A stretch of DNA of 64,000 nt from Massalongia carnosa (Eukaryota). Positions within the stretch are counted from its first letter, which is position 1; the number at the start of each line of letters is the position of its first letter. A program made the position numbers and the translations under genes. Below, piece by piece: positions 262-46,287 of this stretch. The notes below the pieces were generated by a model. It did not search any database, was not told the DNA's origin, and worked only from the letters and a program-made list of their open reading frames with translations. The stretch lies in contig OZ287073.1 of the NCBI GenBank assembly GCA_965645245.1, positions 2,232,001 through 2,296,000 on the forward strand, written 5' to 3'.

Positions 262-461
262 TATGGAGATCTGAGAGATCATAGGATGGGTTGAAGTAGA
301 GACTGAGTTTATTGAACTACTGAGCTCGATAGAGCAGAATATATAGCTCAAATGATAACTAAGTACACATGTGAAAGGGGACATACAGAGGACATGTGAA
401 AGGGGACATGTCGAGTACATGTGATCGAGCATGTGAAAGAGTGAGATTATTCCGGCTGATA
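262..461 (-). repeat. 3' LTR of copia 1
   Basis: Direct repeat of 11660-11859. Confidence 0.95.
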
Positions 462-583
462 CACCCCCCCAGGTTGCAGAGAGTAGTAGCGAACGGAAAG
501 CTGTAAGGCATGCGAACAAAACGAAGGAGATGAAAAGCATTCGTGGAGCGTATGAGCGATTACGACGTGAGTAATGATCATTG

Positions 584-2371
584 TCAAGTATCAGTGGAAG
601 TGGGATAAGGCTGTGAGACGTTGCGTTGATCGCCGATATCCTCAAGACTGAGCTGGGCCATGAAGACAGCGTGGTTCTGTCGCGAAAGGATCTTCGTGAA
701 GCCGTCGGCTGGCATCTGATTTGTTTTTATCCATTTCACGTTGATCTCATCGCGTTGGACGGCTTGACGGAGCCACATCTGATGGATGTCGACGTGCTTG
801 AGTTTCGTCTGAAGCTTCTCAGTAGTCTTGTTGACTACTCCGACCGTTTGAGCGTTGTCACAGTAGATCGTGGGCTTGATGTCGGGATCGAAGTCAAGTT
901 GCTTGAAGAGATTGTTCCACCAGATGAGCTCGGAGCCTGTGCGAGAAAGAGCGTAGAGTTCGGCCTCAGTGGTGGATTTGGATACCGTGCGTTGCTTGGT
1001 TGCCTTCCAGTCAATTGGCAGCTTGAAGAGTTTGAAGATGTATCCATCAGAGCTGGCTCTAGAGACAGGATCGTCGGCAAAGGAAGCGTCAGAGGCACCG
1101 AAAAAGCGTGGTTCAGTGAAGGCGAGATCTAATTCATCGTCCTCGGAGTGAGGAGCAATCCAGGAGTGGCTTTCGTTGATACTTTCGTCAGCGGAGGCCT
1201 TCATGGCGGTAGTGTACGTTTTCCAGAGGAAGCGCCATGACTGAGTGATCTGGCCGAGGTGCTTCGGGCCAGGAAATGTGAGGTAGCGTGAGAGTACGCT
1301 GTGGGACTTGGAGACGTCAGGTCTTGTTTGAGCTGACAGGAAGCCAAGGGAGCCAACAAGTTCTTGATAGACAGCTTGTAGCTTAAGGTCAATGGGGCCG
1401 ATGAAGGGCTCAAGCTGTTCATCACTCATAGGACAGTCTGGGAGAGAGGTGACACCTTTGAGCAGGTCGTACTTCTTCACCACTTGTTCGATGAATGAGT
1501 CCTGAACAAGCCACGTGTGCTTGAGATCGTTGCTGCGTACGACGCGGATGCCGAGAAACCAGTTGAGTTGACCCATAGAGCGGAGCTTGAAGCGGTCTTT
1601 GAGACGCGATTCGAAGTTCTTGTGAGCATGGAGTCGGCTGGGATGAACTAGTACAACGATATCGTCGACGTAGAAGAAGACGATGAGGTCGTTGCTGACG
1701 AACAGGCAGGGCGTGTTGGGGATCGGACGTAATCCCATCTCAGCGAGAGACTTGGTGAATGTGCTGTACCAGAGTTGTGGAGCGTCGCGGAGGCCGTAGA
1801 GGGCTCGTTTGAGACGGAGGATCCGGCCGAGCTGGTCGACAAAGCCTTCAGGCGTGTGGACGTAGACTAGTCGGTCAAGCAAAGCGTTCAAGAAGGCGTT
1901 CATGGCATCGTACTGATACATGAGCAGCCCAAAGCGTGTGGCGAGTGCGATAAGAGCGCGGAAAACTCGAGTAGCAAGCGTAGCTGCGTAGGTCTCACCC
2001 TATTGTGTTTGGAGGTCGCCTCGCACGACGATTCTGGCTTTAGCCTTCGCGAAGTAGCCGTTCGCATCGAACTTATAGGTGAATACCCACATGAGAGGGA
2101 GCACTTCTGCCATCGCGGTGTGTACCGTGACGTCAGTGCGCTCGAAGCAACCCATTGAGAGGCAGTTATCGATTTCTACCTGCTTAGAGAGTCGAAACTG
2201 CGAGCCGATTGGATGCTTGTCAAGGTCCTTGACGCGCTTCGGAGGAGACGGAATCTCCGTACGGTGGATCTTAGTGTTCAAGCTGGCTGGAATTGAGGCA
2301 GGAGTCCGTTGAGTACGGAGCATAGCAAATACACTTGGATAGTACGCAAAATGAGCGCCACGAGGAGGACG
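584..2371 (-). pseudogene. copia 1 reverse transcriptase/RNase H
   Basis: WVFTYKFD..KARIVVRGDLQ, RALYGL, FYVDD, SDASFADD, TTEAE and KHVDIH motifs. In-frame TAG at 2000-2002. Confidence 0.92.
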
Positions 2372-2619
2372 TCCACTGTTGAAGTGAATTGTTGATCACT
2401 ATAGTGCATGTACGAATATTTAGAAGGAATAGTTTTGATTAATTCTATCGTGGGTGCTTTTGAGCACCCACATCGGCTAAACTACCCTAGGCCCATTCCG
2501 GCCAAGCAGTCACCAACTGCCTGACACTTGTCCGTTAGGCTAATGTTTAGCGTAACATCAACACTCCCACTCAGGCATGGTGTCTGCCTTGGTTGATGCT
2601 ATTCAGAAATTGCCCTGCC

Positions 2620-5600
2620 CTACCTCATGCCCATCATGGCCCTAAAGGCCTGGAACCTTGCTGGTGGTAGCGGCTTTGTCATCCCATCTGCTATCATTTC
2701 ATTCGTTGAAATGTATGTGATGATTATCTTTCGGTCTAGTACAACTTCCCTTATCCAATGATGTCGTACGTCAATATGCTTTGTTCGTTTATGGAACTCT
2801 GGGTTAGCGGTAAGGTCAATCGCCCCCTTGTTGTCTGCTCGGAGGTCTGCTGGTTGGTCAGGTCGTCTGTGCCCGAGGGCCTCGAGGAAGCGAGAGCACC
2901 ATAAGGCCTCCTTCCCTGCTTCAGTGATCGCCATATACTCAGCTTCGCATGAAGACAGAGCGACGGTCGGTTGTTGTTTTGATTGGTGAGAAATTGGACA
3001 GCCCGAAAGCATCCAAACGTACCCACCGGTCGACTTTCTTCCATCTACGGTCCCCGCCCAATCAGAGTCAGTGTATCCGATTAGTTCATCCGGAGAGTCA
3101 GCCGAAAATGTCAGTCCTATGGTCAGTGTCCCTGCTAAATAGCGGAAGATTTGTTTGACTAGCTGTATGTGGGTGGGTCCGGGGTTGCTGCAATAGCGGC
3201 TGAGGACTCCCACAGAATAAGAGATGTCGGGTCGGGTGTGGACTGCTGGCCACATCAGTGACCCAATTGCTGACTGATACCAGGCCACAGTGGCTTTGTC
3301 CGCCACCTGTTTTGAGGGTAGAAGGGAGCTTGCTACTCCCGGATCCATTGGTATGGAGGATTGCTTGCAGTCGGTCATTCCGAAACGGTCCAGAACCTTT
3401 TTGAGGTAGGTTGTTTGACGAAGGATTATTGTTTTTCCAACGTCAACGTCAATTTCCATTCCTAAATAGTGAGAGACGTCACCCAGGTTCGTCATTTTGA
3501 ACCGATCAGATAGTTGTTTTTGTATGAACTCGAGGCGGGGTATGTCTGCCCCAAAGAGTAGTAGGTCGTCCACATATATCGCTATGAATTGCTTCTTGTC
3601 ATCAGAAACAAACACTCCATGATCAAGTTCCAAGCGATGAAATCCTAGTTTCTTCAGGAAATCAACAAGGGTCTGGTACCACACTTGTGGTGATTGTTTC
3701 AGTCCATAAAGTGCTTTGATAAGCTTACAAACTAGGTGCGGTGTCGGGTTGAATAAATGAGGTTGTTCGACAAATATCAGTTCATCCAGATATCCATAGA
3801 GAAAAGCGGTCACAACATCCATATGACGAATGGTAAATCCACGTTTAACTCCTACACCCATCATGGCCTTATATGACATGGGCTTGACTACTGCAGCGAA
3901 GGTGTCGATGTAGTCTAGACCTTCTTCCTGCTTGTAGCCATGAACCACCCATCGTGCTTTGTATTTTAGGATATTTCCATGTCGATCCTTTTTCAGTTTG
4001 AACACCCACCGTCCGGTGATTACCCGTCGGTCTTTTGGTGCTTCGGTCAACTCCCACGTGCCATTTTCGGTATGAGATTCAATTTCGGCCTTCATGGCCT
4101 CCATCCATTTGGGCCAATCAGGCCTAGCCATAGCCTCTTTGAGCGAGAAGGGTTCGTCTGGCCCTTCATTATCAATGTTGTTTGCAAGCATGGTTAGTGC
4201 CTTCATCATATGTATGTGGGATTTTGCCACGTTTTTGCTAGTGAAGTTAGTTCGTTTCGGTAGCCTACCTGGTCCATAAAAAATTTCATCAGGATATTGT
4301 GCTCGTTTGACTGGTGCCCGCTTGGACCTTCTCAATGGAACATGGTCAGAGGTGGAAGAATTGTGGCCTTCCGAGGCCTCGGGGGTCTCGGGGTCGGTGG
4401 CCTCGGCCTCGTGGTTGGTGGCCTTGGGGTCGTGGGTCAGACTATCATAGGGACTATCATAATTTCCCCCTCCATAATTTTCTTCGACATTTCTCCCTTC
4501 TGGCCTTGTTTGTTGTGAATCTCCCACTGAATTTTGGTGTGAATGTTCCGTGTTTGGAGGAGAATCGGGGGGTGTAGGTAGGTGAGGTTTATTTGACCGA
4601 GGGGTGTAATAGTCCTCGGGTTTGTTATTTCCCTCGTCGTCAAAATCGTCTGGATTTCCGAACTGATCATCGTCTGTTTGTGCCCATTCGTCATCAACAA
4701 GCTCGTTTGATTTGTAGGCTTTCCGGTCAAATAGGTTCTTTTCATCAATAGTTACGTCTCTAGTAACATGAACTTTGCCTGTGCAGGGGTCATATATCCG
4801 GTACTGATTGGTGCCTTCATAGCCCACATGGATGCCCTGCCAGGACCGTTCGTCTAGCTTCTTTCGTTTTTCCTTGGGAATATGAACCCAAGCACGTGCA
4901 CCCAACACTCTTAGATGACCGAGGTTAGGCTTTTTGTTGTTTAGTTTCTCATATGGTGTCACCCCGTCCGTGTTAGGACTTCTGTTCTTCAGATAACACA
5001 CTGCTTTGATGATTTCAGGCCATAGGCCCTTCGGTAATTTCATTGCTGATAAGATGGACCGGACTGAACTCATCAGAGTATAATTCAGTCGCTCGGCTTT
5101 TCCATTTTGTTCGGGTGTGTATGGGGCACTGCATTTCCATCTGATGTGTTGTTTCTTAAGATAGTCCTGAAAGGCTTCATTGTCATATTCACCTCCCCCA
5201 TCCGAATGGAGTGCTCCCATCTGCATGCCAGTTTCCTGAGACGTCCATTCGATATATTCCTTTGCCTTCTCAAAGGCCTGGCTCTTTAGCTTCATTGGAT
5301 AAACATGGTACGTTCCAGTGGCATCGTCTTTGAAAGATATGTAGTATTGTAACCCGTTTCTGGAGGCCGGGTATGGGCCTCCCAAATCACTATGGACCTC
5401 TTCCAGGAATTTTGAAGCTCGGGGCATGGGAGTTCGTGACGGCTTACGTTGCTGTCTACCCTTCATGCATGGCCCACAAATTTCCTCTGGGACCGGCCCT
5501 TTCACCTCAATTCCTTCAGCTATTTTCGGAAGTTTTAGGATGTTTCGATAACCAAGGTGGCCCATTCTTTGATGCCAAATTTCAATGGTTGGTTTGATTG

Positions 5601-7077
5601 CATTCACTACTGGTTTAGTGTTTGCGAAGTTCGTCATGGCCTCCGAGGTTTTAATTCGAAGCACATATTGTCGATTGATAACGTCAGCTAGTCCGTGGAT
5701 TTTGTTCTCATGAATTAATTGGGTAGGAACATCCGTACGTCTCAGGAACACCTCAACACCTTTCATTGCAAGGGGAACGGTGCTCAGTAAGTTGTGGCCT
5801 AGGGCAGGTGCCCAGCTTACATCTTTTACTGTCAGGACATTTATTGATCCGTCTTCCTGGACCATGTTTAGGACTACGTCACCATACCCGAAGGCAGGAA
5901 GAACTTGCCCCGAGCCCGTTTGGAACTCATGGTAGTACTCAGTGTAGGTGGTAAAAAAGCCTCGGTTTGAGAAGAAATGGTCGGTGGCCCCAGAGTCTAT
6001 GATTACGTAGGGGTTTGGTTTTGGAATGACTGCGGCCACTGACTTACACGTCAAATGAATGGCCCCCATTCCTTTCTTCTCTTCGACCTCATTGGTCGGT
6101 GTGATCGGTATGATCTTTCTGATAAAGCAAGATAGCCCTTTGGTGGTTGCCTCTGGGGTGGTCGCCTCACTTTCCTGGTTCGTCTTGTTCTTTTTACAGA
6201 ACTTCTTGATGTGGCCACGTTTACCACACCCATTACACTCCGCTTTGTCCATCCAGCAATCACCTTTTCCATGCGTTTTCTTGCACCTGGTGCAGACATA
6301 TGTGTCTTTGCTGTCGGAAGTGTTATTGGAGTTGGAGTTGGAGTTCTCCCCCGGCTTTTTCTTTTTACCGGAGTCCCCACCTTTCTTTCCTTTCTGCGTG
6401 TAGTTCGCGGTTGCTTTGTCCTGATTGGCTAGTCGTAACTCTTCATCCTCCAAGGCCTTTGCTAGGACCTCGAGTGTTGGAAGTTCTGCTTTCTCCCTCG
6501 ACTCATGGCTGAGGATGGCCAGGTAGGACTTGAACTGAGTGTCTAATGAATTTAGGGTATGAATTATGACCGCCTCGTCCATGGTTATTTTTAGGTCACT
6601 TATTTCAGAATTAATGTCCCTAATTTTACTGATGAACTCGGCCACGTTCTTGCAGTCCCGTTGGTGGATGGAGTGCAACTTTCCGAGTGTATTCCATTTT
6701 GATGCCCAATTTTGTAACGTGTATCGCGATTGTAGGTGGTCCCATAGCTCTTTTGGAGTCCATCTAGCGAGTGTGTTTTTGGATAGGAATTCTTTCTGGA
6801 CGGTCTCGGTGCACATTCGCCCAATTTTTGCTACCGTACGGCGCGAGTCATCGTTGAAGTCTTTGATTTTTAGGGACCGCTGGTAAATTCGTTCGGCCCT
6901 TTCTTCATCATCATTTGTGGTCGCTACCAATGTTGGAGGTGGAATAGCCGTTCCTAGAACATGGTCCCATAGCTTAGCTTCCTCCAACGCAAAAGACATG
7001 TCGCGAGTCCATTGCTTGTAATTGGTTGAACCGGTCAGCTTTTTAAAGCTATAATCATACTTTGCATCAGATCCCAT
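2620..7077 (-). CDS. copia gag-pol polyprotein (about 1485 aa from ATG 7077)
   Basis: Single uninterrupted ORF with two zinc knuckles, IIDSGATDH protease, WHQRMGH..C..C, integrase D-D-E (HSDLGG, HSDGGGE, NGKAE), RT YVDD and RNase H YTDSDW..CEAE..ADGMTK. Confidence 0.96.
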   Translation of the reverse strand: MGSDAKYDYSFKKLTGSTNYKQWTRDMSFALEEAKLWDHVLGTAIPPPTLVATTNDDEERAERIYQRSLKIKDFNDDSRRTVAKIGRMCTETVQKEFLSKNTLARWTPKELWDHLQSRYTLQNWASKWNTLGKLHSIHQRDCKNVAEFISKIRDINSEISDLKITMDEAVIIHTLNSLDTQFKSYLAILSHESREKAELPTLEVLAKALEDEELRLANQDKATANYTQKGKKGGDSGKKKKPGENSNSNSNNTSDSKDTYVCTRCKKTHGKGDCWMDKAECNGCGKRGHIKKFCKKNKTNQESEATTPEATTKGLSCFIRKIIPITPTNEVEEKKGMGAIHLTCKSVAAVIPKPNPYVIIDSGATDHFFSNRGFFTTYTEYYHEFQTGSGQVLPAFGYGDVVLNMVQEDGSINVLTVKDVSWAPALGHNLLSTVPLAMKGVEVFLRRTDVPTQLIHENKIHGLADVINRQYVLRIKTSEAMTNFANTKPVVNAIKPTIEIWHQRMGHLGYRNILKLPKIAEGIEVKGPVPEEICGPCMKGRQQRKPSRTPMPRASKFLEEVHSDLGGPYPASRNGLQYYISFKDDATGTYHVYPMKLKSQAFEKAKEYIEWTSQETGMQMGALHSDGGGEYDNEAFQDYLKKQHIRWKCSAPYTPEQNGKAERLNYTLMSSVRSILSAMKLPKGLWPEIIKAVCYLKNRSPNTDGVTPYEKLNNKKPNLGHLRVLGARAWVHIPKEKRKKLDERSWQGIHVGYEGTNQYRIYDPCTGKVHVTRDVTIDEKNLFDRKAYKSNELVDDEWAQTDDDQFGNPDDFDDEGNNKPEDYYTPRSNKPHLPTPPDSPPNTEHSHQNSVGDSQQTRPEGRNVEENYGGGNYDSPYDSLTHDPKATNHEAEATDPETPEASEGHNSSTSDHVPLRRSKRAPVKRAQYPDEIFYGPGRLPKRTNFTSKNVAKSHIHMMKALTMLANNIDNEGPDEPFSLKEAMARPDWPKWMEAMKAEIESHTENGTWELTEAPKDRRVITGRWVFKLKKDRHGNILKYKARWVVHGYKQEEGLDYIDTFAAVVKPMSYKAMMGVGVKRGFTIRHMDVVTAFLYGYLDELIFVEQPHLFNPTPHLVCKLIKALYGLKQSPQVWYQTLVDFLKKLGFHRLELDHGVFVSDDKKQFIAIYVDDLLLFGADIPRLEFIQKQLSDRFKMTNLGDVSHYLGMEIDVDVGKTIILRQTTYLKKVLDRFGMTDCKQSSIPMDPGVASSLLPSKQVADKATVAWYQSAIGSLMWPAVHTRPDISYSVGVLSRYCSNPGPTHIQLVKQIFRYLAGTLTIGLTFSADSPDELIGYTDSDWAGTVDGRKSTGGYVWMLSGCPISHQSKQQPTVALSSCEAEYMAITEAGKEALWCSRFLEALGHRRPDQPADLRADNKGAIDLTANPEFHKRTKHIDVRHHWIREVVLDRKIIITYISTNEMIADGMTKPLPPARFQAFRAMMGMR

Positions 7078-7295
7078 GGCTGCGGTACTGAAATATGATT
7101 GGTTCGGTCGGGTCTGGTCGATCTGGTGCGTCTGCACCGTTTGGTGGGGGGTCGAAGCAAAAGTTGACTGGCTGGTCGACTATTTGCTTGTTTGGGGTCG
7201 CAGGAACGCTGACTGGTTGGTCAGTTACCTGATTAGAATATATTCGTAGTGACTATGTAATTGTAATGCAGGTACGCATCCGGGTTCTCATAACC

Positions 7296-7404
7296 TGTTG
7301 AAGCTTGAGACGGTTGATTGTTCTATAGAGGGAGAAGAGCGGCTAATATACATTCAACTGACTAAGCATAGAAACTTCCAGAACGAGGGCAGTGCAATTC
7401 AACA
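7296..7404 (-). repeat. Internal 109-bp LTR-like unit unrelated to the flanking LTRs
   Basis: TGTTGAA...TTCAACA inverted ends. On the minus strand it is preceded by a PPT (TGAGAGGGAG) and followed by a PBS (GGTTATGAG). Confidence 0.8.
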
Positions 7405-7616
7405 CTCCCTCTCACTGCCATAGGTCTTATTCACCTCGCTGAAGCTATCCCGGCGTCGATGACAGTCTGCTCCCTCTTATGCTTTAGTTCCTGATGTAGC
7501 TCCCTCTGAACCCGAATCCCATCCTTGACTTATTGCCCTTGACAGCCTCACTAAAACCGGCCAAACCACCTTTCACACCTGGGTGGAAATCGGAAAGAGT
7601 GCTGTGGGATTGGTCT

Positions 7617-7962
7617 GTTGCCTACCCGTGCTTAGGACTTCCGTTGCCTACCCGTGCGTAGGTCTTTCGTTGCCTGCGTCGTTGCAGGTCTTTCGTTGCC
7701 TGCGTCGTTGCAGGTCTTTCGTTGCCTGCGGTCGTTGCAGGTCTTGCGTTGCCTGCGGTCGTTGCAGGACTTGCGTTGCCTGCGGTCGTTGCAGGACTTT
7801 CGTTGCCTGCGGTCGTGCAGGTCATTCAGTGCCTGCGGTCGTTGCAGGACTTGCGTTGCCTGCGGTCGTTGCAGGTCTTTCGTTGCCTGCGGTCGTTGCA
7901 GGACTTTCGTTGCCTGCGGTCGTGCAGGTCTTTCAGTGCCTGCAGCGCAGCAGGTCTTCCGT
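7617..7962. repeat. Tandem array of about 13 units of 26-27 bp, each a CCTGC-loop-GCAGG hairpin
   Basis: Unit GTTGCCTGCGGTCGTTGCAGG(T/A)CTT(T/G)C read directly from the sequence. Confidence 0.92.
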
Positions 7963-8228
7963 TACAACATGAGCATTGCACTCATGAGGGAACCGCCGTA
8001 GGTTATTTAGGTAAAGCGCAAAGCCGGACCCATAACCTGTTGAAGTGAATTGTTGATCACTATAGTGCATGTACGAATATTTAGAAGGAATAGTTTGATT
8101 AATTCTATCGTGGGTGCTTTTGAGCACCCACATCGGCTAAACTACCCTAGGCCCATTCCGGCCAAGCAGTCACCAACTGCCTGACACTTGTCCGTTAGGC
8201 TAATGTTTAGCGTAACATCAACATCCAC

Positions 8229-11200
8229 GGCCACGGCCGGTGGGACGTGATCGATCAAGTGGCTGCGAGGGACTTGCACCGGAGCGAGTACGTCGTTCAA
8301 GTACGAATTTACCACCACCAGAGATCTCTTGAGCACGCGGGGCCCTGTTGTGTCGAGGATTGCGAGGTTGAGTGGGTGGCTGGTACATAACTCTACTCGG
8401 ACGGGATGGTTGTTCCAGTACTTGCTGGTCGTTGAACAGCTGTTGATCGAGGAGAGTTTGATCATCTTCCTCTGGTGTGGGCGAAGCCAGAGCCTCGCTG
8501 AGTTCGCTAAGAATGGAATCTTCAGGTAGCTGAGGAGGGCTTGCTGTACCCATCCGAGAAGCGTCAGGAGTAAGGAGCTGCATCTGCTGAGGCGACTTAT
8601 TCGTGCTGGTTGCTCGAGTAGGCGGAGTTGATGGCTGATCAGACGCCTCTGTGGCCAGGGAAAGCTCTTGAGTGTAACGAAGCGTTTGCTCATGCGTGTA
8701 GAGGTCGTCGGCAGTGACTTGTTCCTCAGGCATGGTGAGGTCAAGTACTTCGATTTCTTCTTCAGCAACCTTGGGAGCGTGTAGCTTGTGCTCAAGATCG
8801 TCTTTGTACACGAGATCATGCTTGAAGATAACATCTCGGGTGCGAATGACGAGTCGGCTATGAGGAATCCAAACACGAAAGATGTTTGTCGAATCGTAGC
8901 CAAGAAGGTAGCCAATGTGGACTCGAGAGGACGTTTTGTCGGCTGCGTCGAGGTCGCGATTGAGCATGTACACTCGGCAGCCGATGGGAGCGTAGTGAGA
9001 TATCGTAGGTTTGTAGCCATAGATGACCTCATACGGCGTGCGCCATTGGTTCGAGCGAGTGGGCGTGCTGTTGAGCAGTTGGATGGCCGTAATCGTGAGC
9101 TCGTTGACGAGGTCCTGCGGGAGACCTGAGGCGATTCGAAGGGCGCGAGTACGCGTCATGATCGATTTGCCAGCAGACTCTTGGAGACCTTTGGGCTCAT
9201 CGGTGTCCGCTGGGGTTCGTTCGACCTTCATACCAACATCTCTGAGAGATCTCACATGGCCTTTGGTCCATCCGCGTTCGTTGTCAGATCGAACTACGAG
9301 TACAACATACTTGTAGCCAAATTGACGCTGAATCTTCTCGATGATCCGATAGACTGCAGGGACTATCACCTCCTCTCCGCGGGACGGAAGAGTTTCCCCT
9401 TCGTGCCACTTAGAGAACTGACAGACGGCATGAAGTAGATATTTGTCGCCGTTGTAGCAGGATTGGCCAGTGAGGATAAGCTGAACGATGTCGATAGCAA
9501 TTCGCTCAAACGGTCTTGTAGCTGGGTGCTCTGGTGGGCGGCGAGAGATCTATTCGTTCATCTTCGTCTTGATGCAGTCTTCGCACTCCTTCCACGTGGG
9601 AGCTGAGTCGCCATGAATGAGGCGTAAGCCGTTCACGGCGTCCTCAAGGTGGGCAATGGTGTCGGGCCCTGGATGGGCGTAGAGGTGATGTGCTTGAAGC
9701 GGAGTTACTTCAAAGTCAAGCTTCGGATCACGGGAGGGGCGAGGCGTTCGAGTAGCCATCGCTAAGTGGGGTGGCGTGCTAGACTTGAAGCCTGGATGGG
9801 CGTCGATAAGCCAGTGTCCATTGTTGTACTCAAGGAGAGCAACAGTCTCGTTAGTTTTGGCCCGATAGATCAGGTCGCTGCCTGAGTCGAAGTGGAGGCC
9901 CAGGGATCGACAGCGAGAGAGTCCAAGAATGTTGGAGAAAAAGGTGGGGACGTAAGCGACGTTCGTGAGTCGTATGTTCCGCACGCCTTCAGGAGCGTTG
10001 ATAAGAATCTCAACCGAACCGTACTCAGTGACGGGCATGAGTTGAGAACCAGCATAGATCACCTCTGTGGCACCAGCGTAGTGCGAGTGAATCCATGACC
10101 AAGCCTTCGAGTTGGTGACGTGGATGTTGGAGCCAGGGTCCATAATCCATCGGTTGAAGAAAGCCGGGGGTTCATCAGGTTCATAAGTGGAGAAGGTTCC
10201 CTTCGGCTGCCAGTGCGCAGCGGTATAGCCGTTGAAGGTGGAGATGACACATCATCAAACTGATTTTTGTACTGGATCGAGGACGCTAAAGTAGCGTTGG
10301 AGTATGAGGTGGACCTAGGCGCATTAGCATCGTCAAAGGCCATAGCGTTAGTCGAGGTGAAAGGCTTCACTGAAGAGATATCGGATGAGCGTTGCCGTTC
10401 GCGTTCAGCCGATTCAAGAGCCTTGTCAAAGCGAGTTTTGACGCCTGGACTCTTGCGAGCTTCTTCAAAACGGGCCGATATCGTCCTGTCAGCCTTCCAA
10501 CCTGACGGGCGTTTGGCTGGAACGAGGTAAGGGCAGTCCTTGTACCAATGAGCTACTCCACAGTAGCAATCGCGTGGTGGCTGACGGGAGCGAGAGCCAG
10601 AGCGGTTGAAATGGAGTAGTAAAGGATGGAGATGGGTTCTTAGAAGAAGGACCTCCCTGGTTATCAGACGCAACGCCGAGGGTGGCGCCGAAAGTACCGT
10701 TCTGGTTGGTACTTCCGATGATGCGATAGAACTGACGGAAGTTGGCAATGAGAGTACTCACTTCGGGAGCCGAGGAGACCTTGGACGAGTCGTTGATGAG
10801 GGCGAGTAGTTTGACAAGCTCCTGAGTGGCCCATGTAGTGTGGACGTGCATGACTGAATTGAGGAAGGCCTCCTGTACCTGACCGTCTTTCATCTCCGGC
10901 ATATCTAGAGATTTCATGAGGTCGGTGACACGTAGCCATTCCTGGATCCAATTGTCGATTGATTGGTTGCGAGCTCGGCGAGGGTTACGGATTGCGTCGT
11001 ACGCCTCTTGAATCTCGCGTTTTCGGGTTGGGTCAGAAGGAGCAATGTGAGCGCTCAGAGTGCTGAGGCGTTCCCACACGGTCTTCTTGCCCTTGATGAG
11101 CGCTTGATAGTGGGCAGCAATCGAGCTGTTCATGTTGCTGAACATGGTGTCTAGAGCGTCGCGTTGTCGAATCCACTTGCTGTGTTGGTACTGCCATTGG

Positions 11201-11436
11201 GAGAGCTTGTAGCCATGCATCTTGAGCTCAGCATCTTTGGAGTCTCCAGCAGGGAGGCCAGGATGTATGGGTTCCGTGGGCTCTTCGGGCTGAGTGGCGA
11301 GAGCAGGATTGCGGTACGCCCAAACACTTTTAGCAGTGGCGTAATCCTCATATCCAAAAATCCAGGAGGACCAGTTCTCAGGCTTCAAGAGCACCACAGT
11401 GGTGATCGTCACCTTCTGGTTGACTTGCGCGGACAT
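8229..11436 (-). pseudogene. copia 1 gag-protease-integrase, disrupted
   Basis: Gag ORF 10489-11436, zinc knuckle CYCGVAHWYKDC, protease DPGSNIH, HHCC region and integrase core RSDNERG..GLQE. Frameshifts are present, and a TAG at 9550. Confidence 0.9.
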
Positions 11437-11648
11437 GATGAGATGGAGCGTGATAGACGTCCGAGTAATCTCAACAATTTATGGAAAGCGAGGGAGGAGG
11501 AAGGCTACCACGAGATCAATGTGGGATCATGATAGCGTTAAGGAAGTGGACGAGAGATAGACTATGCAAATAGTCGATAGCAGCAGCAGGAGTGGAAACT
11601 CAGTGATTTTTCTGGAGTGACTGTGGCAGCGCGAGTGGAAGTCAAGGA

Positions 11649-11659
11649 GGGCTCATAAC
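11649..11659 (-). other. Primer-binding site complementary to the initiator tRNA-Met anticodon stem-loop
   Basis: Minus strand GTTATGAGCCC immediately after the 5' LTR. Internal tRNAi-Met priming of this type is known for copia and Ty5. Confidence 0.85.
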
Positions 11660-11859
11660 TATGGAGATCTGAGAGATCATAGGATGGGTTGAAGTAGAGA
11701 CTGAGTTTATTGAACTACTGAGCTCGATAGAGCAGAATATATAGCTCAAATGATAACTAAGTACACATGTGAAAGGGGACATACAGAGGACATGTGAAAG
11801 GGGACATGTCGAGCACATGTGATCGAGCATGTGAAAGAGTGAGATTATTCCGGCTGATA
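11660..11859 (-). repeat. 5' LTR of copia 1
   Basis: Direct repeat of 262-461, adjacent to the PBS. Confidence 0.95.
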
Positions 11860-15031: not shown

Positions 15032-16705
15032 CAGTACTAGGTCAAAAGTTTCCGACAGCCCCACCATCAACTTTTTACCCTACCACTGCTTTGAATTATC
15101 AACTATTGTCGGACCGTTCTTATTGATCTGGAAAATGATGTTCTCCTTATCTATCTAAACTGGAAATTCTTGCTAGCTATATAGACCATTTCGCCACATT
15201 CTTTCATAATCTAGATATCTTCCAGCCACTTCTATTTACTAATAAATCATTAGTGATCCGGAACCCATGCGAGGTACAATGCTTTGAAATCATTGAGTAT
15301 TAGAAATTAGATATATGGCATAGAAAGAAATAGCATCTGAAAGATCGAGGCCTCGGTTATTAGTCCGAAATCACGTGCTTTTCCTTCAAGAGGATCTTAC
15401 TTCGGGAATTGGCTTGAACCACGGTCTATTAATATCGACAACTATTAAGTTGTTATTTTGATGTCTTGAAACTTCGTACGACGATTACATACATTATAGC
15501 AAGCACATTGGGCTGAGAAATATATTTTTAATATTTCGTATACCATCCTTTTGACTGGATGCAAGCTTCAATCCTCCTTTCCATGCTGTCTACTAAACTC
15601 TTCAGCATTTCCTCATCTATCAAGGCCTATGCGTCTTCCAAAGCTTTCCAAAGTACCTCGCGGACCCTATCATCACTACCAGTCACTGAGTCGATGTCCG
15701 GATTGACCTGGTAGACGAGCTTCTTGAGCACGTACCAAACGTGCTCGATGGGATTCAAATTAGGGGAATAAGGGGGCCAATCGATGACTGTTATACCGTT
15801 TTCATCGAACCATTTCTTCACCTTTTTGGCAGTGTGAATGGGGGCATTATCCTGCATGAAAATGAGACCTGGTTCCCAAATTCAAAGCAGATTATCGTTC
15901 AATAATTCCAAATATGAATTCGCGGAGTACCCCATCTTCTTTGCCTCGAAATCGCGGGCCAATTTGTAAAGATCCGACCCCCCCCCCCCAAAAAGCCCCC
16001 CATACCATGACCTTAACCTCTTTTCCTTTGCCGTTCGGTTGTATCATAGGTTTTTCCATTTTTCGTCCGGAAACCTGAACACCCATTGACGCTGTTTTCC
16101 CGACCCCTTTTCCACCGAGCACTCGTCTGACCATATTATTTTTGACCACTGCTCAAAAGTCCACTCACGCCGAAGCAAGCACTAGTCTAGCCTCTTCTTT
16201 GCCACTTCGGGCGTCAATAAAGCTCGCTTTTTTGCCAGCCAGTTTGTTAGACCATAGTCTTTGAGCGTCCGATAGAGAGTGGATCGACTACATTGCACCT
16301 CAACCTCCGTACGCAGCTGCGCGCAGGTGATGCGTGGATTGATTCGTGCAAGTTTAATGATACGTCTTCGATCGCGGTTCGAACATATTCCAGGCCGACC
16401 CGATCGCGATTTGGACTTTTCGTTGTTGCGTTCTGGGTGCTTTTGAAGAGTGCAAATGACGGTAGTTCGAGGCACATTTAATGTCTTTGCAATTTCGGCC
16501 GGTGCATGCCTCAATGCCTGGGCTCCAACAATCATACCTCTTTGACATTGATTCAATTCGGTATTACGAGGCTTATTACCAGAAATTGAAGTCAACGGAG
16601 TGCGTAGCATGGTGAAATGATGAGGTCAAAGTTGATGGGTTGGTAGGTTAAAACGCGAAATCACGAAGATCGCGGGTAGAGTCGGAAACTTTTGACACGG
16701 GACTG
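15032..16705 (-). mobile_element. Tc1-family (DD34E) transposon, degenerate copy A1
   Basis: TA flanks, imperfect 25-bp TIRs CAGT....GTCAAAAGTTTCCGAC, and transposase 16610 to about 15529 with MQDNAPIH..WPPYSPNLNPIE. Stops and frameshifts are present. Confidence 0.92.
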
Positions 16706-17251
16706 TACATCTGGGAATTTCTGGTATCTTCGATGCTTAGAAATTCAGGTCTATAGACGTTCGAGGAGAATCTCGAATGTTCTGTGATCATGTGTATATA
16801 ACATCACTCCTACGCATAGCTTAGAGATCAGTCGCAATAATCTGAATTATTTCATTCAAAGAAGTTCTGTACTATCCAGAGACTTCTGGCACTCTGCCAC
16901 CTATTTTCTGTGCATTGGGTCCATCATTCTCCATCCATCCCTCCTATTTTAAACAGCCCCATAGCACTTCTGAACACGCTCGGCAAGGTTATGGAATCTA
17001 TCATGTCCAAGAAAATTACTCACCTAGCGGAAACCCACAGACTCCTACCGGACACACAGATGGGGGCCAGAAGAGGAAGATCAACCGAAACTGTTCTGGA
17101 ATTGTTAACTGAACAAATTCACACAGTATGGGGACAAGGCAACGACAAAATAACTACTCTGTTAAGCATGGACGTAGCAGGAGCGTATGATACAGTGTCA
17201 CATCGATGTTTAATTCATAACCTGCGCAAACGAAAATCCCAAAATGGATTA

Positions 17252-18978: not shown

Positions 18979-19682
18979 TACTGACTGGCACCTGGGTAGA
19001 CAGTTTTTAAGAAGCACCACGCTAGCAATACATAGCCGGCATATTCGAAGTACGAACTGGAATACCACAAGGCTCTCCTATTTCTCCTATCCTTTATCTA
19101 TTCTATAACGTAGACCTGTTAGACATATGTGAAAGACCCGGAACAAACACGAGCGCCTTAGGTTTCGTAGACGACATAAACGTACTAGCATATGGGAAAA
19201 GCACGGAAGAAAACTGCAAAACGCTGGAGGAAATTCACAAGAAATGCGAAAAATGGGCTATTCGACACGGAGCAGTTTTTGCACCGAAAAAGTACGAACT
19301 GATACACTTGTCAAGAAATCCGAAGAAATTCAACATGTCTACTGTCGTTAGAATAGAAAACAGCAACATAGAACCAAAAACGGACATTAGAATCTTGGGA
19401 CTTCGAATCGACACAGAATTGAAATGGGGTCCGCACGTCAGAAAGATCCAGGAAAAATTGATAAAACAATCTAAGGCACTGACAAAAATTTCTATCTCCA
19501 CATGGGGCGCCACTTTTCCAAAAGCCCGCCAAGTATACACCGCCGTAGTCCGTCCGGCCATGACGTATGGTTCTACCATATGGCACACGCCAAAGGACAT
19601 AAAAAAAATCGAACGGCATCTCAAACAAGCTAGCCGTCATACAGAATAAATGCTTACGAACTATAGCTGGGGCATTTAGGGC

Positions 19683-21491
19683 GAGATGCTTAGGGACAGT
19701 CCCCCCCCGACCGTCCCCCACCCCCCCCCCTCTGTGTAAATCTTTACTAGTAAACAGCCATTTTACTACTCATCCAGGGTGCGTACAAGCTAGCAGTTAC
19801 ACTACGTATTAATAATGTTGCTGTTACTGACTAAGTGTATTCAACACCTACAAATCTACCTATTGCGATGACTTCAACTCCAAAAACTCGTCAATCAATT
19901 GCGATACATCATCTTTTCAAGGCTTCATGATTTCAACCGTCTTTCTCATCGCCGTTTGGTTTCTTCGTCACACCCCGAGACCTTCGCGTTGTTGCAGAGG
20001 AAGTAGGGAGAATTTAACTGGCGCGCACGTTTTGGCTAAGACTATAAAGAGATGGAGGCGGCGCAGCCTCAGGTAGGGCTTTTTGACTATGCTTGGCAAG
20101 CACATCGTCAATATCTTCGAGCGAATCCGACGAGGCTTCTGATGTAAGAATAACATCATTATCGTCATCCGAAGGAAGCATAGGATCCATAGAACGACCG
20201 AGAATGGGCTGAATGCTTATATACTGCACCTCGTCATCGTCATCGGAGACGATAGATGCGTTTTCGATTCTCTCCATAACTAAGTTTTCTCCTAAACCTA
20301 TTGTACCCAATATTAGCCGACCCGAGCGCAATAACTTTGCAACATCGTGAATTTTACCTTCTGTTTCACCTTCAACCTCATCGTCGCCCCCAGCACGCAA
20401 TCTATTATATCTAAGCCTCCTCCCTTGTTCAATAGAGTCCCTTCGCCTAGTACGTCGCTGTTCAGTTTCTCTAGCCTCAGCTGCCTCGCGACCAGTGTAG
20501 GCACGTCGACGACTCCCTCCTTTCTTATACATGAGGTTTTCTTTGGGCCGAATCTCGTCAGGGAATGTGGTGGGGATGAGAGGTCTTACCAGTTCCTTCT
20601 TTTGCCCATTTCTTATTGAACTTTTCAACGATGTGAGAATGCTCGCGAGCGTACTCCTCCCTTCGATGAGAATCTTCTATTGATTGATGCAGGTCAATAG
20701 ATTGATATGCCACAGAATGTAGCAAATCAAGGCCCCCGCGGCGAAATCAAATCTATCCTCACTCAACACGCCTTCTTCGAGCTCGACCTCATCCTTATCA
20801 GCCTCAATCTCTGCCGTCCCTTCGATCTCATCGACGATCTTTTCGACCTCGGGCTCCGAGCCGCGAGCGAAATAGAAGGTCATTTGCCAAGAGACCACAT
20901 AAGGTGGGCCATCAAAAAACTAGCGGGGGTGGATGAGGGAAACGGGAATAGAGACCGAGTCGATGATGCATTTATACAACCAGTATTTGCATGGGAGACC
21001 GTACCTTAAAGGCAATTCACAATCATAAACACAGCTTCCACCATCAGGGACAATAGAAAGGATTCGTTCAGCTAATGATTTGGCGGCATCGAGTTCTCTG
21101 GAAACGAGGCCAATGGCATGATGCGTAATTTTCCCAATGAGTAGCGTAAAGGCATTTCTATCGATCAATCTAGGATTGCGTATTCGCTGTTGTTTTTTCC
21201 GCACCTCATCACATATTTTCTGCACTGAATTGTCTTATAGGCAAGGGCTAATGGTAAGTGAGGGTGAGGATGAGGGTGAGGGTATGCTTTATCAGGCCGA
21301 GTAGGATAATTATAAGTAGCAATAACACGTCATACGATTTAAACCGAAAAGAGTTTAATGTGCTGTTGGCAGTTGCATTACTAGCTTGTACGCACCCTGG
21401 ATAAGCAGTGAAAAGGCTGTTTACTAGCAAAGATTTACACAGGGGGGGGGAGGGGGGGGACGGTCGGGGGGGGACTGTCCCTAAGCACCTC
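19683..21491 (-). mobile_element. Non-autonomous Mutator-like element (MULE), copy 1
   Basis: TIRs of about 110 bp starting GAG(A/G)TGCTTAGGGACAGTCC and duplicated target GCATTTAGGGC. Carries a SWIM-like CxxxC..YGLPC transposase C-terminal fragment without a DDE core. Confidence 0.85.
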
Positions 21492-22469
21492 GCATTTAGG
21501 GCAACTCCCATACCGGTACTGGAAGCGGAAATGTACATAGCCCCAATTGATATACATCTAGATCAACTTCAGGCTCAGGCTAGACATCGCTTGTGTCAGG
21601 GAGGTCAAAAGAAATTTATCATCAATACATGCAACTCCATTGCAAACAAACTCAGAGGACGGGCTGGACGAAAGCGAGCTCCTACGAGTACTCCGGGAAC
21701 GCTGAAATATGCATGGGCCAAGAAAATAACATCGGATACCCAAAAAAGCCTGATGCCGGTAGCGAACCCACCATGGGCCGAAACCCCCCCAAATACAGCT
21801 CGAGACATCCAAGAAGCGCGTGCCGTTCAAGGCAAAATAATCGCAAAAATAAAACAACGATACACAGACGCATGGCAGACCTCTTGGAAATCATATCAGA
21901 ACCTCACATCTACGCCTACTCCAGCACAAGTAGCCCCACTCACAAAAACACGCATCAAATTACACGAAACTCTAGCCAAAGCAGAAAGCGCTCTAACAAT
22001 TCAGATACGCTCAGAAAAGATAGGTCCAGCCGACTTCCTATTTAGACGTCGCGTTCCCGACGTCTTGACACCGAAGTGTCCATGTGGCTGGCCAAAACAA
22101 ACCGCGAAACATGTAATCATGTTTTGCAAACTCAACAGTAACAGACATTTAATGTTACGCTCCATAGGAACAATAATTATCGACTCATTACTGACTCATC
22201 CAGAGCGATGAAACTAGTTTCCGCTTGGTTAATGAAGACCGGCTTACTAACCCAGTTCTCACTGGCAGCACAGCATTTATATCATTGACAATTGGCGATT
22301 AAATACGTCGATTCTTTTCTTTAACTTGTCATCGGTCAACTGTTCTTTAGGAAGATCTCTCGACGGAGACTCGGAGAGTATTCGTAGAAGTATCGGATTA
22401 CTTGGTTTTTCACTTGCCCGCATGGCCGGCCTTCGGCCTGTACCACATCGAAATAAGAATTATCATCAT

Positions 22470-28163: not shown

Positions 28164-28492
28164 AGATCGAAATAGCGGAGAAAAATCATCAGCTATGATT
28201 GGCTTTGATCATAAACTCTCCTCCACTACTATACTTCGTACGCTTAAACAGAATGGGTTTCGCCCCTGTAAAAGCACGAAAAAGCCAGGTCTAGATTCGA
28301 TCATGAAAGAGGCTCGTCTGCAATTTTGTTTGCAATATCAGCACTGGACTATTGATAATTGGAAGAACGTTATATGGACTGACAAAACAAGTAGGTATTA
28401 TATTGGGTTCTAGACGTGGAAGAAGACTTCAGTGGCGTACCTCGAAAGAAATGTATGGTGAAACGTGTATTCGACGTAGATGGAAAGGATGC

Positions 28493-30271
28493 GAGATGCT
28501 TAGGGACAGTCCCCCCCCGACCGTCCCCCTGTGTAGATCTTTACCAGTAAACAGCCACTTTAATACTCATCCAGGGTGCGTACAAGCTAACAGTTACACT
28601 ACGTATTAATAATGTTGCTGTTACTGACTAAGTGTATTCAACACCTACAAATCTACCTATTGCGATGACTTCAACTCCAAAAACTCGTCAATCAATTGCG
28701 ATACATCATCTTTTCAAGGCTTCATGATTTCAACCGTCTTTCTCATCGCCGTTTGATTTCTTCGTCACACCCCGAGACCTTCGCATTGTTGCAGAGGAAG
28801 TAGGGAGAATTTAACTGGCGCGCACGTTTTGGCTAAGACTATAAAGAGATGGAGGCGGCGCAGCCTCAGGTAGGGCTTTTTGACTATGCTTGGCAAGCAC
28901 ATCGTCAATATCTTCGAGCGAATCCGACGAGGCTTCTGATGTAAGAATAAAATCATTATCGTCATCCGAAGGAAGCATAGGATCCATAGAACGACCGAGA
29001 ATGGGCTGAGTGCTTATATACTGCACCTCGTCATCGTCGTCGGAGACGATAGACGCGTTTTCGATTCTCTCCATAACTAAGTTATCTCCTAAACCTATTG
29101 TACCCAATATTAGCCGACCCGAGCGCAATAACTTTGCAACATCGTGAATTTTACCTTCTGTTTCACCTTCAACCTCGTCGTCGCCCCTAGCACGCAATCT
29201 ATTATATCTAAGCCTCCTCCCTTGTTCAATAGAGTCCCTTCGCCTAGTACGTCGCTGTTCAGTTTCTCTAGCCTCAGCTGCCTCGCGACCAGTGTAGGCA
29301 CGTCGACGACTCCCTCCTTTCTTATACATGAGGTTTTCTTTGGGCCGAATCTCGTCGGGGAATGTGGTGGGGATGAGAGGTCTTACCAGTTCCTTCTTTT
29401 GCCCATTTCTTATTGAACTTTTCAACGATGTGAGAATGCTCGCGAGCGTACTCCTCCCTTCGATGAGAATCTTCTATTGATTGATGCAGGTCAATAGATT
29501 GATATGCCACAGAATGTAGCAAATCAAGGCCCCCGCGGCGAAATCAAATCTATCCTCACTCAACACGCCTTCTTCGAGCTCGACCTCATCCTTATCCGCC
29601 TCAATCTCTCCCGTGCCTTCGACCTCATCGACGATCTTTTCGACCTCGGGCTCCGAGCCGCGAGCGAAATCGAAGGTCATTTGCCAAGAGACCGCATAAG
29701 GTGGGCCATCAAAAAACTAGCGGGGGTGGATGAGGGAAACGGGAATAGGGACCGAGTCGATGATGCATTTATACAACCAGCATTTGCATAGGAGACCGTA
29801 CCTTAAAGGCAATTCACAATCATAAACACAGCTTCCACCATCAGGGACAATAGAAAGGATTCTCAGCTAATGATTTGGCGGCATCGAGTTCTCTTGAAAC
29901 GAGGCCAATGGCATGATGCGTAATTTTCCCAATGAGTAGCGTAAAAGCATTTCTATCGATCAATCTAGGATTGCGTATTCGCTGTTGATTGCACAAAATC
30001 TCCTGATCTAATTGTTTTTTCCGCACCTCATCACATATTTTCTGCACCGATTTTCTTATAGGCAAGGGCAAATGGTAAGTGAGGGTGAGGGTGAGGGTAT
30101 GCTTTATTAGTAGCAATAACACGTCATACGATTTAAACCGAAAAGAGTTTAATGTGCTGTTGGCAGTTGCATACTAGCTTGTACGCATCCTGGATGAGTA
30201 TTAAAGTGGCTGTTTACTAGTAAAGATCTACACAGGGGGACGGTCGGGGGGAGACTGTCCCTAAGCATCTC
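28493..30271 (-). mobile_element. Non-autonomous MULE, copy 2
   Basis: Near-identical to 19683-21491, with duplicated target GGAAAGGATGC at 28482-28492 and 30272-30282. Confidence 0.88.
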
Positions 30272-31747
30272 GGAAAGGATGCTCCGAGTTTTTGTTTTGG
30301 GGCTGTTTTTCGTACGATAAGAAAGAACCTTTTCATATCTGAAAAACAGAGACCGCAAAAGAGAAAAGAGAGGCTCAAATTGAGTTAGATAAACTCAATA
30401 AGACTTTAGAATCAGAAGCTAAAGAGGATTGGGAGTTAGAAACAAGCATGAGACGAATGAAGCTACGTAATCCAGGAGGTCGAAAACCTATCTGGAAATG
30501 GGATAAAACACACGGTAAAGTCGTTCGAGATGGCAAGGGAGGAGTAGACTGATATCGTTATGAAAAACTCGTCTTAATTCCTAAGCTTCTTCCGTTTGCA
30601 AAAGAATGTATGATAGATCGACCAAACACTATCGTACAGGAAGACAAGGCCCCCAGTCACGCATCCAAACATCAAAATCTGATCTTTATGGATTTCAACG
30701 TCATGCGTCTGTTATGGCCTGGAAATTCTCCTGATCTGAACATGATCGAGCCTTGCTGGTTCTGGATGAAGCGAAGAACAACTCGATTAGGTGCTCCGAG
30801 GACTCGTATTGAGGCTGAAAAGGCCTGGACAAAGTGCTGGACGGAGGAGTTGACGCAGAAAAGAATTCAGTCCTGGATTGAACGTATAAAGCGACATGTT
30901 GACGAGGTGATATTGTTGGACGGAGGTAACGAGTATAGAGAAGGTAGAGAGATCGGAGTCGTACGACCGTATAATAAAGAAGATCGCCGTGTTCGATATC
31001 ATCGCGCTCATCTCAAACGAGAAAGCACTGACAGCGATGAGTATAAGTGATAAAGATGATGATGGTGATAATTCTGAATAGCTTCATGCGATTATTCGAT
31101 GGATTGATATTTAATAACTATCTACCTATCAATGCAAATATACCCATGTAAAGTGGCCTTTTTAGCTGCATATTTAGCGTTAGCAAGGACTTTCGGCGTC
31201 ATCCTTCGTAAATAGTTTGAGAAATGCGTCAAGGAGATGATAGCGTCATGGAAGTCCTCGGTCGCACGGTTAGAAAGTCAATCGTTTCGTTTGTGCATAT
31301 GCAAGAACTCGTTTGTCGAACTAGTAAAATCAATTGCCCAGAACTACCATTCCGCCTGATGCAAGTCACTGTTCTAACAGCTGCAAGTTGCTCCTTTTGC
31401 TGGTTTAGTCTTACAACGTAAACATGTTGCATGATCGACGCATGCATGAACAACGATTACACTTACACGATCTCTACACTACAGTGACCCCGCTGCTCTT
31501 TGACAAATATTTAGACCTTGTCTGACCTCAAATATCTCGTCTCGCTACCCGCAAAACGGTCTTTCCTATTTCTTCCTCGACTTTGCCCTTCTCTCCCATT
31601 TATGATATTTTATTCCGGCCCCAAAGACCATCTTTTTGCAATCTTTGCTTTCTAATCTCGCGCTCATTATCTTTCAATCCTGCCGCCGATATCTTTCGGT
31701 TCTACTCGCTTCTACTTTAGTTGTCGGTTTTATCGCTTCTTAGCTTG

Positions 31748-38606: not shown

Positions 38607-39575
38607 TTCATAGCACGATCGTTAATATCCATGCACAAGTCGCTAAGCAGTCACGAGTGCTATTTACTCACTTAAACGCGAATCATTGGTCAACTTCATA
38701 TCACTATGAAAGAAATCCGAAATAGTGAAACCGGCGTTAATAGAGTTGATCTCACAGTAAATGAATCCCGTACGGATGCAAGTGCAGATGCCAGTACGGC
38801 TGGAGGCGGTGTCGTTTCTTCTTCATGTATTGATTAATTGGTATATGTTCAATATCAGAACAGTCGTTGACTCTATTGAAGTAGGCAACGAAAGTCAATC
38901 GAATGTCAACGACAACGAGCGATAGTACCGCGCTTAAGAAAGAATAAGTTGAGAGGATTACGCAAGCCTTAGAGAGACTCATTTATTTGATTAGGTTTAT
39001 GAACAGCCATCTTAACGCTTTAGTGCGACTCAAGTATATATTTATATGTAAGCTATCATTTGGACATCCATGATATTCCTTCAAACCTATTGAAAATGTC
39101 ATATCAGCCGAAATTCCGCATAAGGCATTCGGGGCGCTCAAGCTCCCATTGCAAGACCTATCTTAGTTTACCCAAATATGACGATAGAAACTGCCGAATG
39201 GAGAGTTTATGTGCAGAACTGTACATGGCCTATGTGTTGAAATAGGTATATGACTATGGCTATATGGCTATGTAATAATAAAGGTATGTATGACCGTGAT
39301 GTTAAGGATGAAGAGTTGCTATGCAGCAATCTTTTCCTATTACTGGTCACCCTTCTAAGCGAGGTGATCTTATCTTATCTTGGGACTAAGCCTAATGCGG
39401 CATCTACCGGTTTCCGTAGATCATCTGTCAATCTAGGGCAGCCGTAGGTGCTATGTTCATTGAACTGATAGGTGTTCATTGTGCTGGTAGGAATTGGATA
39501 TTCAACACCCCCCCTCAAGTCCTACCAGTACTTGTTTCCATCGTAGATTCAACCGTGATTGAACTTCTTAACCTC

Positions 39576-46118: not shown

Positions 46119-46287
46119 TAACAAATATTTTTTGAAATAAACATCGAATTAATTTGTTAAACGAAACCAACGAAATCTTAAACGACTGAAATTCGTGAAA
46201 AAAAAACGATTTAAAATAATAAACCTAATGCACACGAACGAAGAATTCTTATCGATAAAGAATTTAATCAACAATAAAATCTGAAAC

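Follow-up and report, generated by a model that had tools for sequence, protein, structure and literature searches.

A three-LTR copia composite in the lichen fungus Massalongia carnosa, probably an autonomous element joined to one unit of an unrelated non-coding element

How can a single copia retrotransposon come to hold three long terminal repeats (LTRs) of two unlike kinds, with two primer-binding sites (PBS) and two polypurine tracts (PPT) between its outer ends? The locus that raises this question lies in Massalongia carnosa (assembly GCA_965645245.1, contig OZ287073.1, positions 2,232,001-2,296,000 of the forward strand), the host of the element being a lichen-associated fungus. This whole stretch of 64,000 nt is called the window; the coordinates given for the composite are window positions and the element is read on the minus strand. 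An earlier note on this DNA had described a non-coding cassette and an intact gag-pol unit moving as one element. We asked if the parts are present as described, if the whole was integrated as one unit, and which kind of event could have joined them. The composite is, in our judgment, probably a heterologous three-LTR element of the kind termed "complex" or "tandem", made of an autonomous Ty1/copia element plus one unit of an unrelated, non-coding element resembling a terminal-repeat retrotransposon in miniature (TRIM).

The composite LTR retrotransposon occupies 5847 bp (8223-2377, minus strand). It starts beyond the upstream copy of a target-site duplication (TSD; 8224-8228, GTGGA, i.e., TCCAC on the plus strand) with the 5' LTR-A (8038-8223; 186 bp, TGTTGA...CTTCAACA), followed by PBS1 (8024-8037, GGTTATGGGTCCGG), a 51 nt leader (7973-8023), a non-coding tandem array (7617-7963) whose 26/27-nt units each contain a 5-bp stem (CCUGC...GCAGG), the unique 3' part of the cassette interior (7414-7616; 203 nt) and PPT1 (7405-7413, GAGAGGGAG), which stands directly upstream of LTR-B (7296-7404; 109 bp, TGTTGA...CTTCAACA). 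Thereafter come PBS2 (7280-7295, GGTTATGAGAACCCGG), the primer site of the cassette-free element described below, a 202 nt leader (7078-7279), the gag-pol open reading frame (ORF; 2620-7077, ATG at 7077, stop at 2622-2620, 1485 aa), PPT2 (2564-2572, GAGTGGGAG), the 3' LTR-A (2377-2563; 187 bp) and the downstream TSD copy (2372-2376, GTGGA). Every part named in the earlier note is thus present on the minus strand, in the order and at the coordinates it gave. The whole cassette (PBS1, interior, PPT1 and LTR-B) measures 742 bp (7296-8037), the content of a single LTR and a single interior from a mini-element with a predicted length of 851 bp (109 + 633 + 109). The spacing from LTR-A to LTR-B, described as some 630 bp of non-coding hairpin array, is indeed 633 bp and non-coding; the array itself accounts for about 350 bp of it.

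The outer ends behave as those of one recent insertion. By blastn the LTR-A pair is 99.47% identical over 188 columns. It resolves into two perfect repeat blocks, one of 130 nt and one of 60 nt (100% identity in each; offsets 5660 and 5661); the sole difference is one A within an A-run (AAA vs AAAA). GTGGA at 8228-8224 and at 2376-2372 bounds the whole composite. Repeat blocks, blastn and flanking letters therefore agree with the description of LTR-A copies one indel apart within a TCCAC duplication. Six public runs, from four studies, contain the stretch in whole or in part, one of them labelled lichen metagenome and the rest carrying three other organism labels. Logan contigs of four runs (X1, X2, X3 and X6) were aligned to window positions 1800-8800 at 85% likeness; the results given here and below are those among the matches listed, with a further 504 pieces and 112 loose ends lying beyond these. 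Contigs were taken to show the presence of junctions, not their absence, and contig depths were not taken as copy numbers. X1, X2 and X3 each contain one contig in which 2371 is followed directly by 8224, so that 5852 bp are missing and 5 letters are common to both sides of the join; these empty-site contigs differ from the window by about 1.6-1.7% (98.3-98.4% identical). Whether the empty sites are alleles or other copies, the 5847-bp element together with one copy of the TSD acts as one insertion. Three observations, namely the TSD, the lack of any substitution between the outer LTRs, and the fact that exactly 5852 bp are absent from related sequence in three of the four runs aligned, together support the conclusion, reached also by the earlier note, that the composite was transcribed, reverse transcribed and then integrated as one unit, recently.

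The junctions in the other runs bear on which part of the composite was added to which. One X2 contig (847 nt) follows 6478-7288 and passes straight into 8031-8066, which is specific to LTR-A; 742 bp are left out, and 15 letters are common to the two sides of the join. In X3, a contig enters LTR-A at 8031, and the 12 letters preceding this point equal window 7277-7288, i.e., PBS2. From these LTR-A|PBS2 junctions it follows that the ordinary element is cassette-free and that the 742 bp at 7296-8037 are an addition, and they support the reading of the cassette as foreign to the autonomous element. At the other end, PPT2 continues into LTR-A in X2, X3 and X6. The unique part of the cassette is covered, partly, by contigs in X1, X2 and X3, those listed for X1 and X2 showing 5-6 differences over about 150 bases (7433-7579). 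The one X2 contig listed over this unique part runs 38 nt into LTR-B, bridging PPT1, so the PPT1|LTR-B adjacency exists outside the assembly of the window. In X2 and X3 the contigs over gag-pol depart from the window by 0-2 letters, whereas the X2 cassette contig is about 2% diverged, and this contrast would fit a separate origin of the cassette.

LTR-B also has ends of its own elsewhere. Its alignment halts against unlike sequence at one or other of its exact borders: at 7404 in three contigs of X2 and in X6, and at 7296 in X3 and again in X6. In X6 the letters AAATT stand on both sides of LTR-B, matching a 5-bp duplication, with a chance of about 1 in 1000 if the two sides belong to one locus. 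The earlier note had held that its reading would fall if 7296-7404 never acted as a terminus elsewhere; these exact ends, together with AAATT, indicate that it does. The X6 copy of LTR-B is split at 7348/7349 by sequence with reverse-complementary ends, and the splitter looks like a small inverted-repeat transposon that would lie inside a solo or terminal LTR-B.

Both flanks of LTR-B in the composite are those expected of an LTR. The 13-mer TCAACAGGTTATG, made up of an LTR end and a PBS start, occurs three times in 64 kb vs 0.10 expected, and its sites are the LTR|PBS junctions of LTR-A, of LTR-B and of a third copia in the window (39235-45194), and no others. GGGRGTGTTGA, made up of a PPT end and an LTR start, likewise occurs three times (0.04 expected), only before the 3' LTR-A, before LTR-B and before the 3' LTR of the third copia. 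Because both junction motifs occur only at these junctions, the PBS and PPT adjoining LTR-B are, on the evidence of the motifs, genuine. The two LTR types themselves proved unrelated, as had been claimed, apart from their tips: the local alignment score of LTR-A vs LTR-B was 18 (shuffles, 15.2 +/- 2.4), and in global alignment 6 of 500 shuffles matched the observed score, owing to the common tips. Comparisons of LTR-A with LTR-B, leader with leader, and pre-PPT with pre-PPT region revealed likeness only in these tips, in the initial 7 nt of the PBS and in the core of the PPT, and the interiors of the cassette and the autonomous element are unrelated. The LTR-A|PBS1 and LTR-B|PBS2 junctions have a 15-nt identity in common (CTTCAACAGGTTATG), and the cassette borders fall inside it. 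No duplication was found at 7296/7404 or at 7296/8037, so the inner TSD by which a nested insertion is recognized is lacking. The composite therefore has an internal LTR between a PPT and a PBS, a TSD around the whole, and outer LTRs that are the most alike, all as in three-LTR elements; its LTRs and its two interiors do not all belong to one family.

The cassette itself is TRIM-like. The array consists of a part with a period of 27 nt (11.4 copies at 7660-7963, 89% matches) and a second part with a period of 26 nt (2.3 copies at 7617-7675). The fold of the 438-nt leader RNA has a z of -2.75, and 1 of 100 shuffles folded equally well. None of the four ORFs in the array matched a Pfam family above cut-off, and a search of the protein database with a spurious ORF that runs from the array through PBS1 into the next LTR gave 0 matches from 1 candidate. 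Rfam gave no match at E <= 1 over 7000-8400, and hence there is no sign of a small-RNA gene of the Cassandra/Helenus type in LTR-B. A 27-nt stretch of the cassette had 0 matches to metagenome contigs and a stretch of LTR-B had 0 matches to prokaryote genome contigs. A bacterial promoter/terminator scan was rejected as inapplicable to a eukaryote; its "terminators" were the array hairpins only. The donor of the cassette would have a predicted size below 1 kb, a non-coding interior, and PBS1 and PPT1; the available part of one source places TRIMs in the size class below 1 kb (PMC13570524).

The remainder is an intact copia. The gag-pol frame encodes 1485 aa without interruption by a stop codon, and its domains stand in copia order: gag, the barrel of the protease region, integrase and reverse transcriptase (RT), with RNase H lacking a separate model score. 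On the numbering of a 1505-aa ORF, the matches are Retrotran_gag_2 (47-239), Pol_BBD (379-460), gag_pre-integrs (502-562), rve (597-675; 24.1 bits, under its cut-off of 32.6), SH3_retrovirus (734-802) and RVT_2 (1025-1264). Direct LTRs, TG...CA tips, a 5-bp TSD, a PBS and a PPT complete the structure of a Ty1/copia element. Relatives of the polyprotein numbered 59 proteins at E <= 1e-30 among 7558 candidates; its own cluster has 55 member sequences, the representative being 98% identical over 73% of its length. The polyprotein had a single uninformative locus among metagenome contigs (27% identity) and 0 matches among viral contigs, and the RT stretch had 0 matches among prokaryote genome contigs.

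All four PBSs in the window have (G/A)GTTATG in common. PBS1 differs from the PBS of the third copia (GGTTATGAGCCCGG) by two transitions and PBS2 differs from it by an inserted AA. No tRNA gene lies within the 64-kb window. In the available portions of two sources (PMC5371799; 10.1101/2025.04.25.647736), Ty5 is described with LTR tips TGTTG/CAACA and a PBS matching a half molecule of the initiator tRNA-Met. The Ty5-type copia of yeasts resembles the present elements in these TGTTG...CAACA tips and in a PBS that directly follows the LTR and holds the complement of a CAU anticodon; it differs in that the nearest relatives of the present polyprotein outside its 98% cluster are only 58% identical. 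By this analogy the PBS would fit priming by the anticodon stem-loop half of the initiator tRNA-Met, the complementarity being judged from the PBS of the neighboring copia.

How could the two have been joined? The cassette would have entered the copia exactly at the LTR|PBS boundary, within the 15-nt identity formed by LTR end and PBS. Since both families are alike in LTR tips, in the first 7 nt of the PBS and in the PPT core, a strand transfer could have proceeded onto the wrong partner. One route would be a set of misdirected strand transfers within a particle in which both RNAs were co-packaged: in either element the plus-strand strong-stop DNA terminates with a copy of one and the same tRNA primer, which would let it anneal to the PBS complement of the other. 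Sabot and Schulman proposed this type of event for same-family complexes (PMC1950507). In the other route the mini-element, as a circle with one LTR, would have recombined with the copia through a single crossover at the 15-nt identity CTTCAACAGGTTATG. We infer that both routes would yield precisely the observed structure; the data do not separate them. The passenger is better read as a mini-element bounded by LTR-B, which would have given its interior and one LTR, than as a mini-element running from LTR-A to LTR-B.

Several observations weigh against the reading of the composite as a heterologous three-LTR element. The flanks of the empty sites are themselves a repeated element, so the contigs concerned may derive from further copies of the outer copia rather than from alleles. 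Within the window there is no further copy of LTR-A, LTR-B or the cassette, and a single copy of the composite is known. Among the matches listed for the four runs we found neither the filled site, nor LTR-A|PBS1, nor LTR-B|PBS2, so the composite is without independent confirmation outside the assembly of the window; nor was the predicted LTR-B|PBS1 junction of the mini-element, including a joint that "goes back", among them. The consensus of X2 beside 7404 has an agreement of 0.56 and matches the flank in X6 at roughly 20 positions out of 30, which leaves the nature of some LTR-B flanks ambiguous. The composite is, moreover, read here from DNA alone and not from RNA. That the filled site, LTR-A|PBS1 and LTR-B|PBS2 are not among the matches listed could mean that the assembly threaded a 742-bp cassette into an ordinary LTR-A element at the shared repeat ends. 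Such an artefact is quite unlikely: the identity at both joins is 15 nt only, which is below the usual assembly overlap, the cassette is an exact functional unit in the correct PPT and PBS contexts, and the window is without any N and resolves several nested repeats.

The same structure might be reached in other ways. The gag-pol element could originally have been bounded by LTR-B, with LTR-A, PBS1, array and PPT1 arriving from another element in the course of an LTR replacement, as is suggested by the position of the PBS used by the gag-pol element directly after LTR-B. On this view LTR-B would be a former LTR of the autonomous element, retained internally, which comes close to the LTR-B-bounded gag-pol copies named in the earlier note. 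In addition, an X1 contig halts at 7302, 7 nt into the LTR, and in an X2 record 26 letters near the end of LTR-A are exchanged for unlike letters of equal length; PBS2-gag is thus joined to more than one LTR variant (X1, X2; 7296-7303), so LTRs are indeed exchanged in this family, and the swapping of LTRs or of U5 may be frequent in it. We nevertheless hold replacement to be improbable, because LTR-A adjoins PBS2 in X2 and X3, PPT2 leads into LTR-A in three runs, and the unique part of the cassette is found, at about 2% divergence, joined to LTR-B while the gag-pol contigs are nearly identical to the window, so that LTR-B goes with the interior of the cassette and not with gag-pol. Nesting is common in the window, the composite itself lying inside another copia, and an LTR-B element or solo LTR might have inserted into the leader of the LTR-A element and later been trimmed by deletions. 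This can be given hardly any credence: neither LTR-B nor the cassette has a flanking TSD, a PPT on one side of LTR-B and a PBS on the other are the signature of a shared internal LTR, and the borders of the cassette match the LTR|PBS boundary to the base. The fusion of a TRIM-like passenger with an autonomous element, as proposed in the earlier note, is in contrast supported by the cassette-free form in X2 and X3 and by the LTR-B ends elsewhere, and the heterologous three-LTR element remains our preferred reading.

What such an RNA could give rise to is a separate matter. If a read-through RNA began in the 5' LTR-A, and PBS1 and PPT2 served for priming, the composite would result again, with PPT1 as an internal plus-strand origin. 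Priming at PBS2 and PPT1 would give a circular permutation bounded by LTR-B, and transfer of the LTR-A plus-strand strong-stop DNA onto PBS2 would lose the cassette and restore the ordinary element. The earlier note had envisaged a helper/satellite system working in cis, a single RNA regularly giving the full element, a mini-element (LTR-A to LTR-B) and a core element (LTR-B to LTR-A). One transcription unit does carry two PBS/PPT pairs, and the composite has transposed at least once. Daughters with unlike LTRs are, however, unlikely on mechanistic grounds and are not expected from standard reverse transcription (the model as set out in PMC1950507), since one set of U3, R and U5 serves as template for both LTRs of a new copy; LTR-A and LTR-B have no significant similarity beyond their tips that could act as a common R, and no further copies, transcripts or cDNA forms were seen of this system, which like the composite is read from DNA. 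A working system of this kind is thus very improbable. It is also conceivable, though improbable, that the element has two phases, one RNA being copied into a circular permutation bounded by either LTR-A or LTR-B and the mini-element being shed or regained by plus-strand transfer onto the other PBS; such copying would be possible because there are two compatible PBS/PPT pairs and because the tips recognized by integrase are common to both LTR types. If this were true, a non-coding parasite would travel in cis with its helper and be released from it again, and the LTR-B ends with other flanks could partly be permuted copies or their solo-LTR remains.

The surroundings of the composite are rich in repeats. 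Judged from the sequence on its two sides, the composite is not in unique DNA and is nested within the pol of an older copia (262-11859, minus strand; LTRs 262-461 and 11660-11859), between integrase and RT. The LTR pair of this older copia is 99.5% identical over 200 bp, with tips that are not TG...CA; its PBS is AGTTATGAGCCC and CTGAT stands on both sides. Its domains lie in 8224-9549 (rve/SH3), 9553-10251 (Pol_BBD) and 587-1999 (RVT_2), and with the 5852 bp removed in silico one of its frames is open across the restored junction; its pol has two in-frame stops (2000-2002 and 9550-9552). An X6 contig (4157 nt, depth 2, from a run with another organism label) carries 2377-4317 without a difference next to another flank, so LTR-A elements occupy further sites; this contig reflects either an element that is shared and very recent or a low-level admixture of the same fungus in that run. 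The third copia (39235-45194, minus strand) has 274-bp LTRs that are 98.9% identical, tips TGTTGAAT...TTTCAACA, PBS GGTTATGAGCCCGG and PPT GAGGGGGGG, its tip and PBS being of the type of LTR-A and LTR-B. The 5-mers around it are unlike (TTAAG vs CATAG), and since they differ it may be a recombinant without a TSD. Next to its 5' LTR lie two sets of tandem repeats, one with a unit length of about 100 bp (44313-44667) and one in which repeats some 1 kb long are 84-98% identical (45889-48881). Another element is present twice (19681-21493 and 28491-30272); its copies agree at 93% over 1.8 kb, their terminal inverted repeats measure about 100-113 bp, and it is probably a DNA transposon. An inverted pair of 1.25-kb repeats with 78% identity was found at 15461-16707 and 62683-63931.

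Three-LTR elements with a TSD are known as the Angela, Squiq and Opie complexes (Sabot & Schulman 2007, PMC1950507). They have, as here, three LTRs, two internal regions, a 5-bp TSD and outer LTRs that are the most alike, and were read as products of one reverse transcription and one integration; in these grass elements, however, one family is involved and both interiors are coding, whereas here the middle LTR and the first interior are foreign, the latter non-coding, and the host is a fungus. Further precedent for TSD-flanked three-LTR elements with an internal LTR between PPT and PBS comes from PMC4079214, PMC13570524 and PMC11899658, which like bioRxiv 10.1101/452573 are cited for those portions that were available. 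These describe a TSD in 45 of 63 complex elements of rice (bioRxiv 10.1101/452573), 97 tandem copies of sugar beet TRIMs, 73 with a TSD, and two chimeric TRIM-08 copies with an extra LTR from TRIM-01 or TRIM-05 (PMC13570524), multi-LTR Cassandra TRIMs of pear (PMC4079214), and tandem LTR-retrotransposon insertions of rice and other plants which are polymorphic between genomes (PMC11899658). As far as these portions go, the pear Cassandra and sugar beet cases join non-autonomous with non-autonomous elements, whereas here a mini-element unit lies inside an intact autonomous copia. The rice tandem insertions share with the present case the alternation of LTRs and interiors within one TSD; the pipeline used for them, as described there, seeks highly similar repeated interiors, and would miss heterologous composites like the present one (PMC11899658). 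Among open-access papers and preprints we found no report of an autonomous copia that carries the entire series of PBS, interior, PPT and LTR from a non-coding family unrelated to it. The three-LTR kind itself is known from plants; the present case is set apart by the combination of an intact autonomous copia with an unrelated non-coding unit, and by the lichen-fungus host.

With one copy, and DNA sequence as its only basis, the case is still anecdotal. TSD-flanked three-LTR elements nevertheless provide the chief evidence from nature that two genomes of LTR retrotransposons can become joined in the course of reverse transcription or shortly thereafter, and the known cases join like with like, so that the joins are hard to locate. 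The partners in the present composite are unrelated except in their tips, the start of the PBS and the core of the PPT, so each join can be assigned to the exact base of the LTR|PBS boundary, within 15 shared nucleotides. The candidates for the joining step are thereby reduced to two, a strand transfer guided by the PBS and a crossover with a one-LTR circle. Having two PBSs and two PPTs per template, the composite offers a test object for the choice of primer site; it illustrates a non-autonomous element carried in cis by its helper, and it extends the scant knowledge of the mobile elements of lichen fungi.

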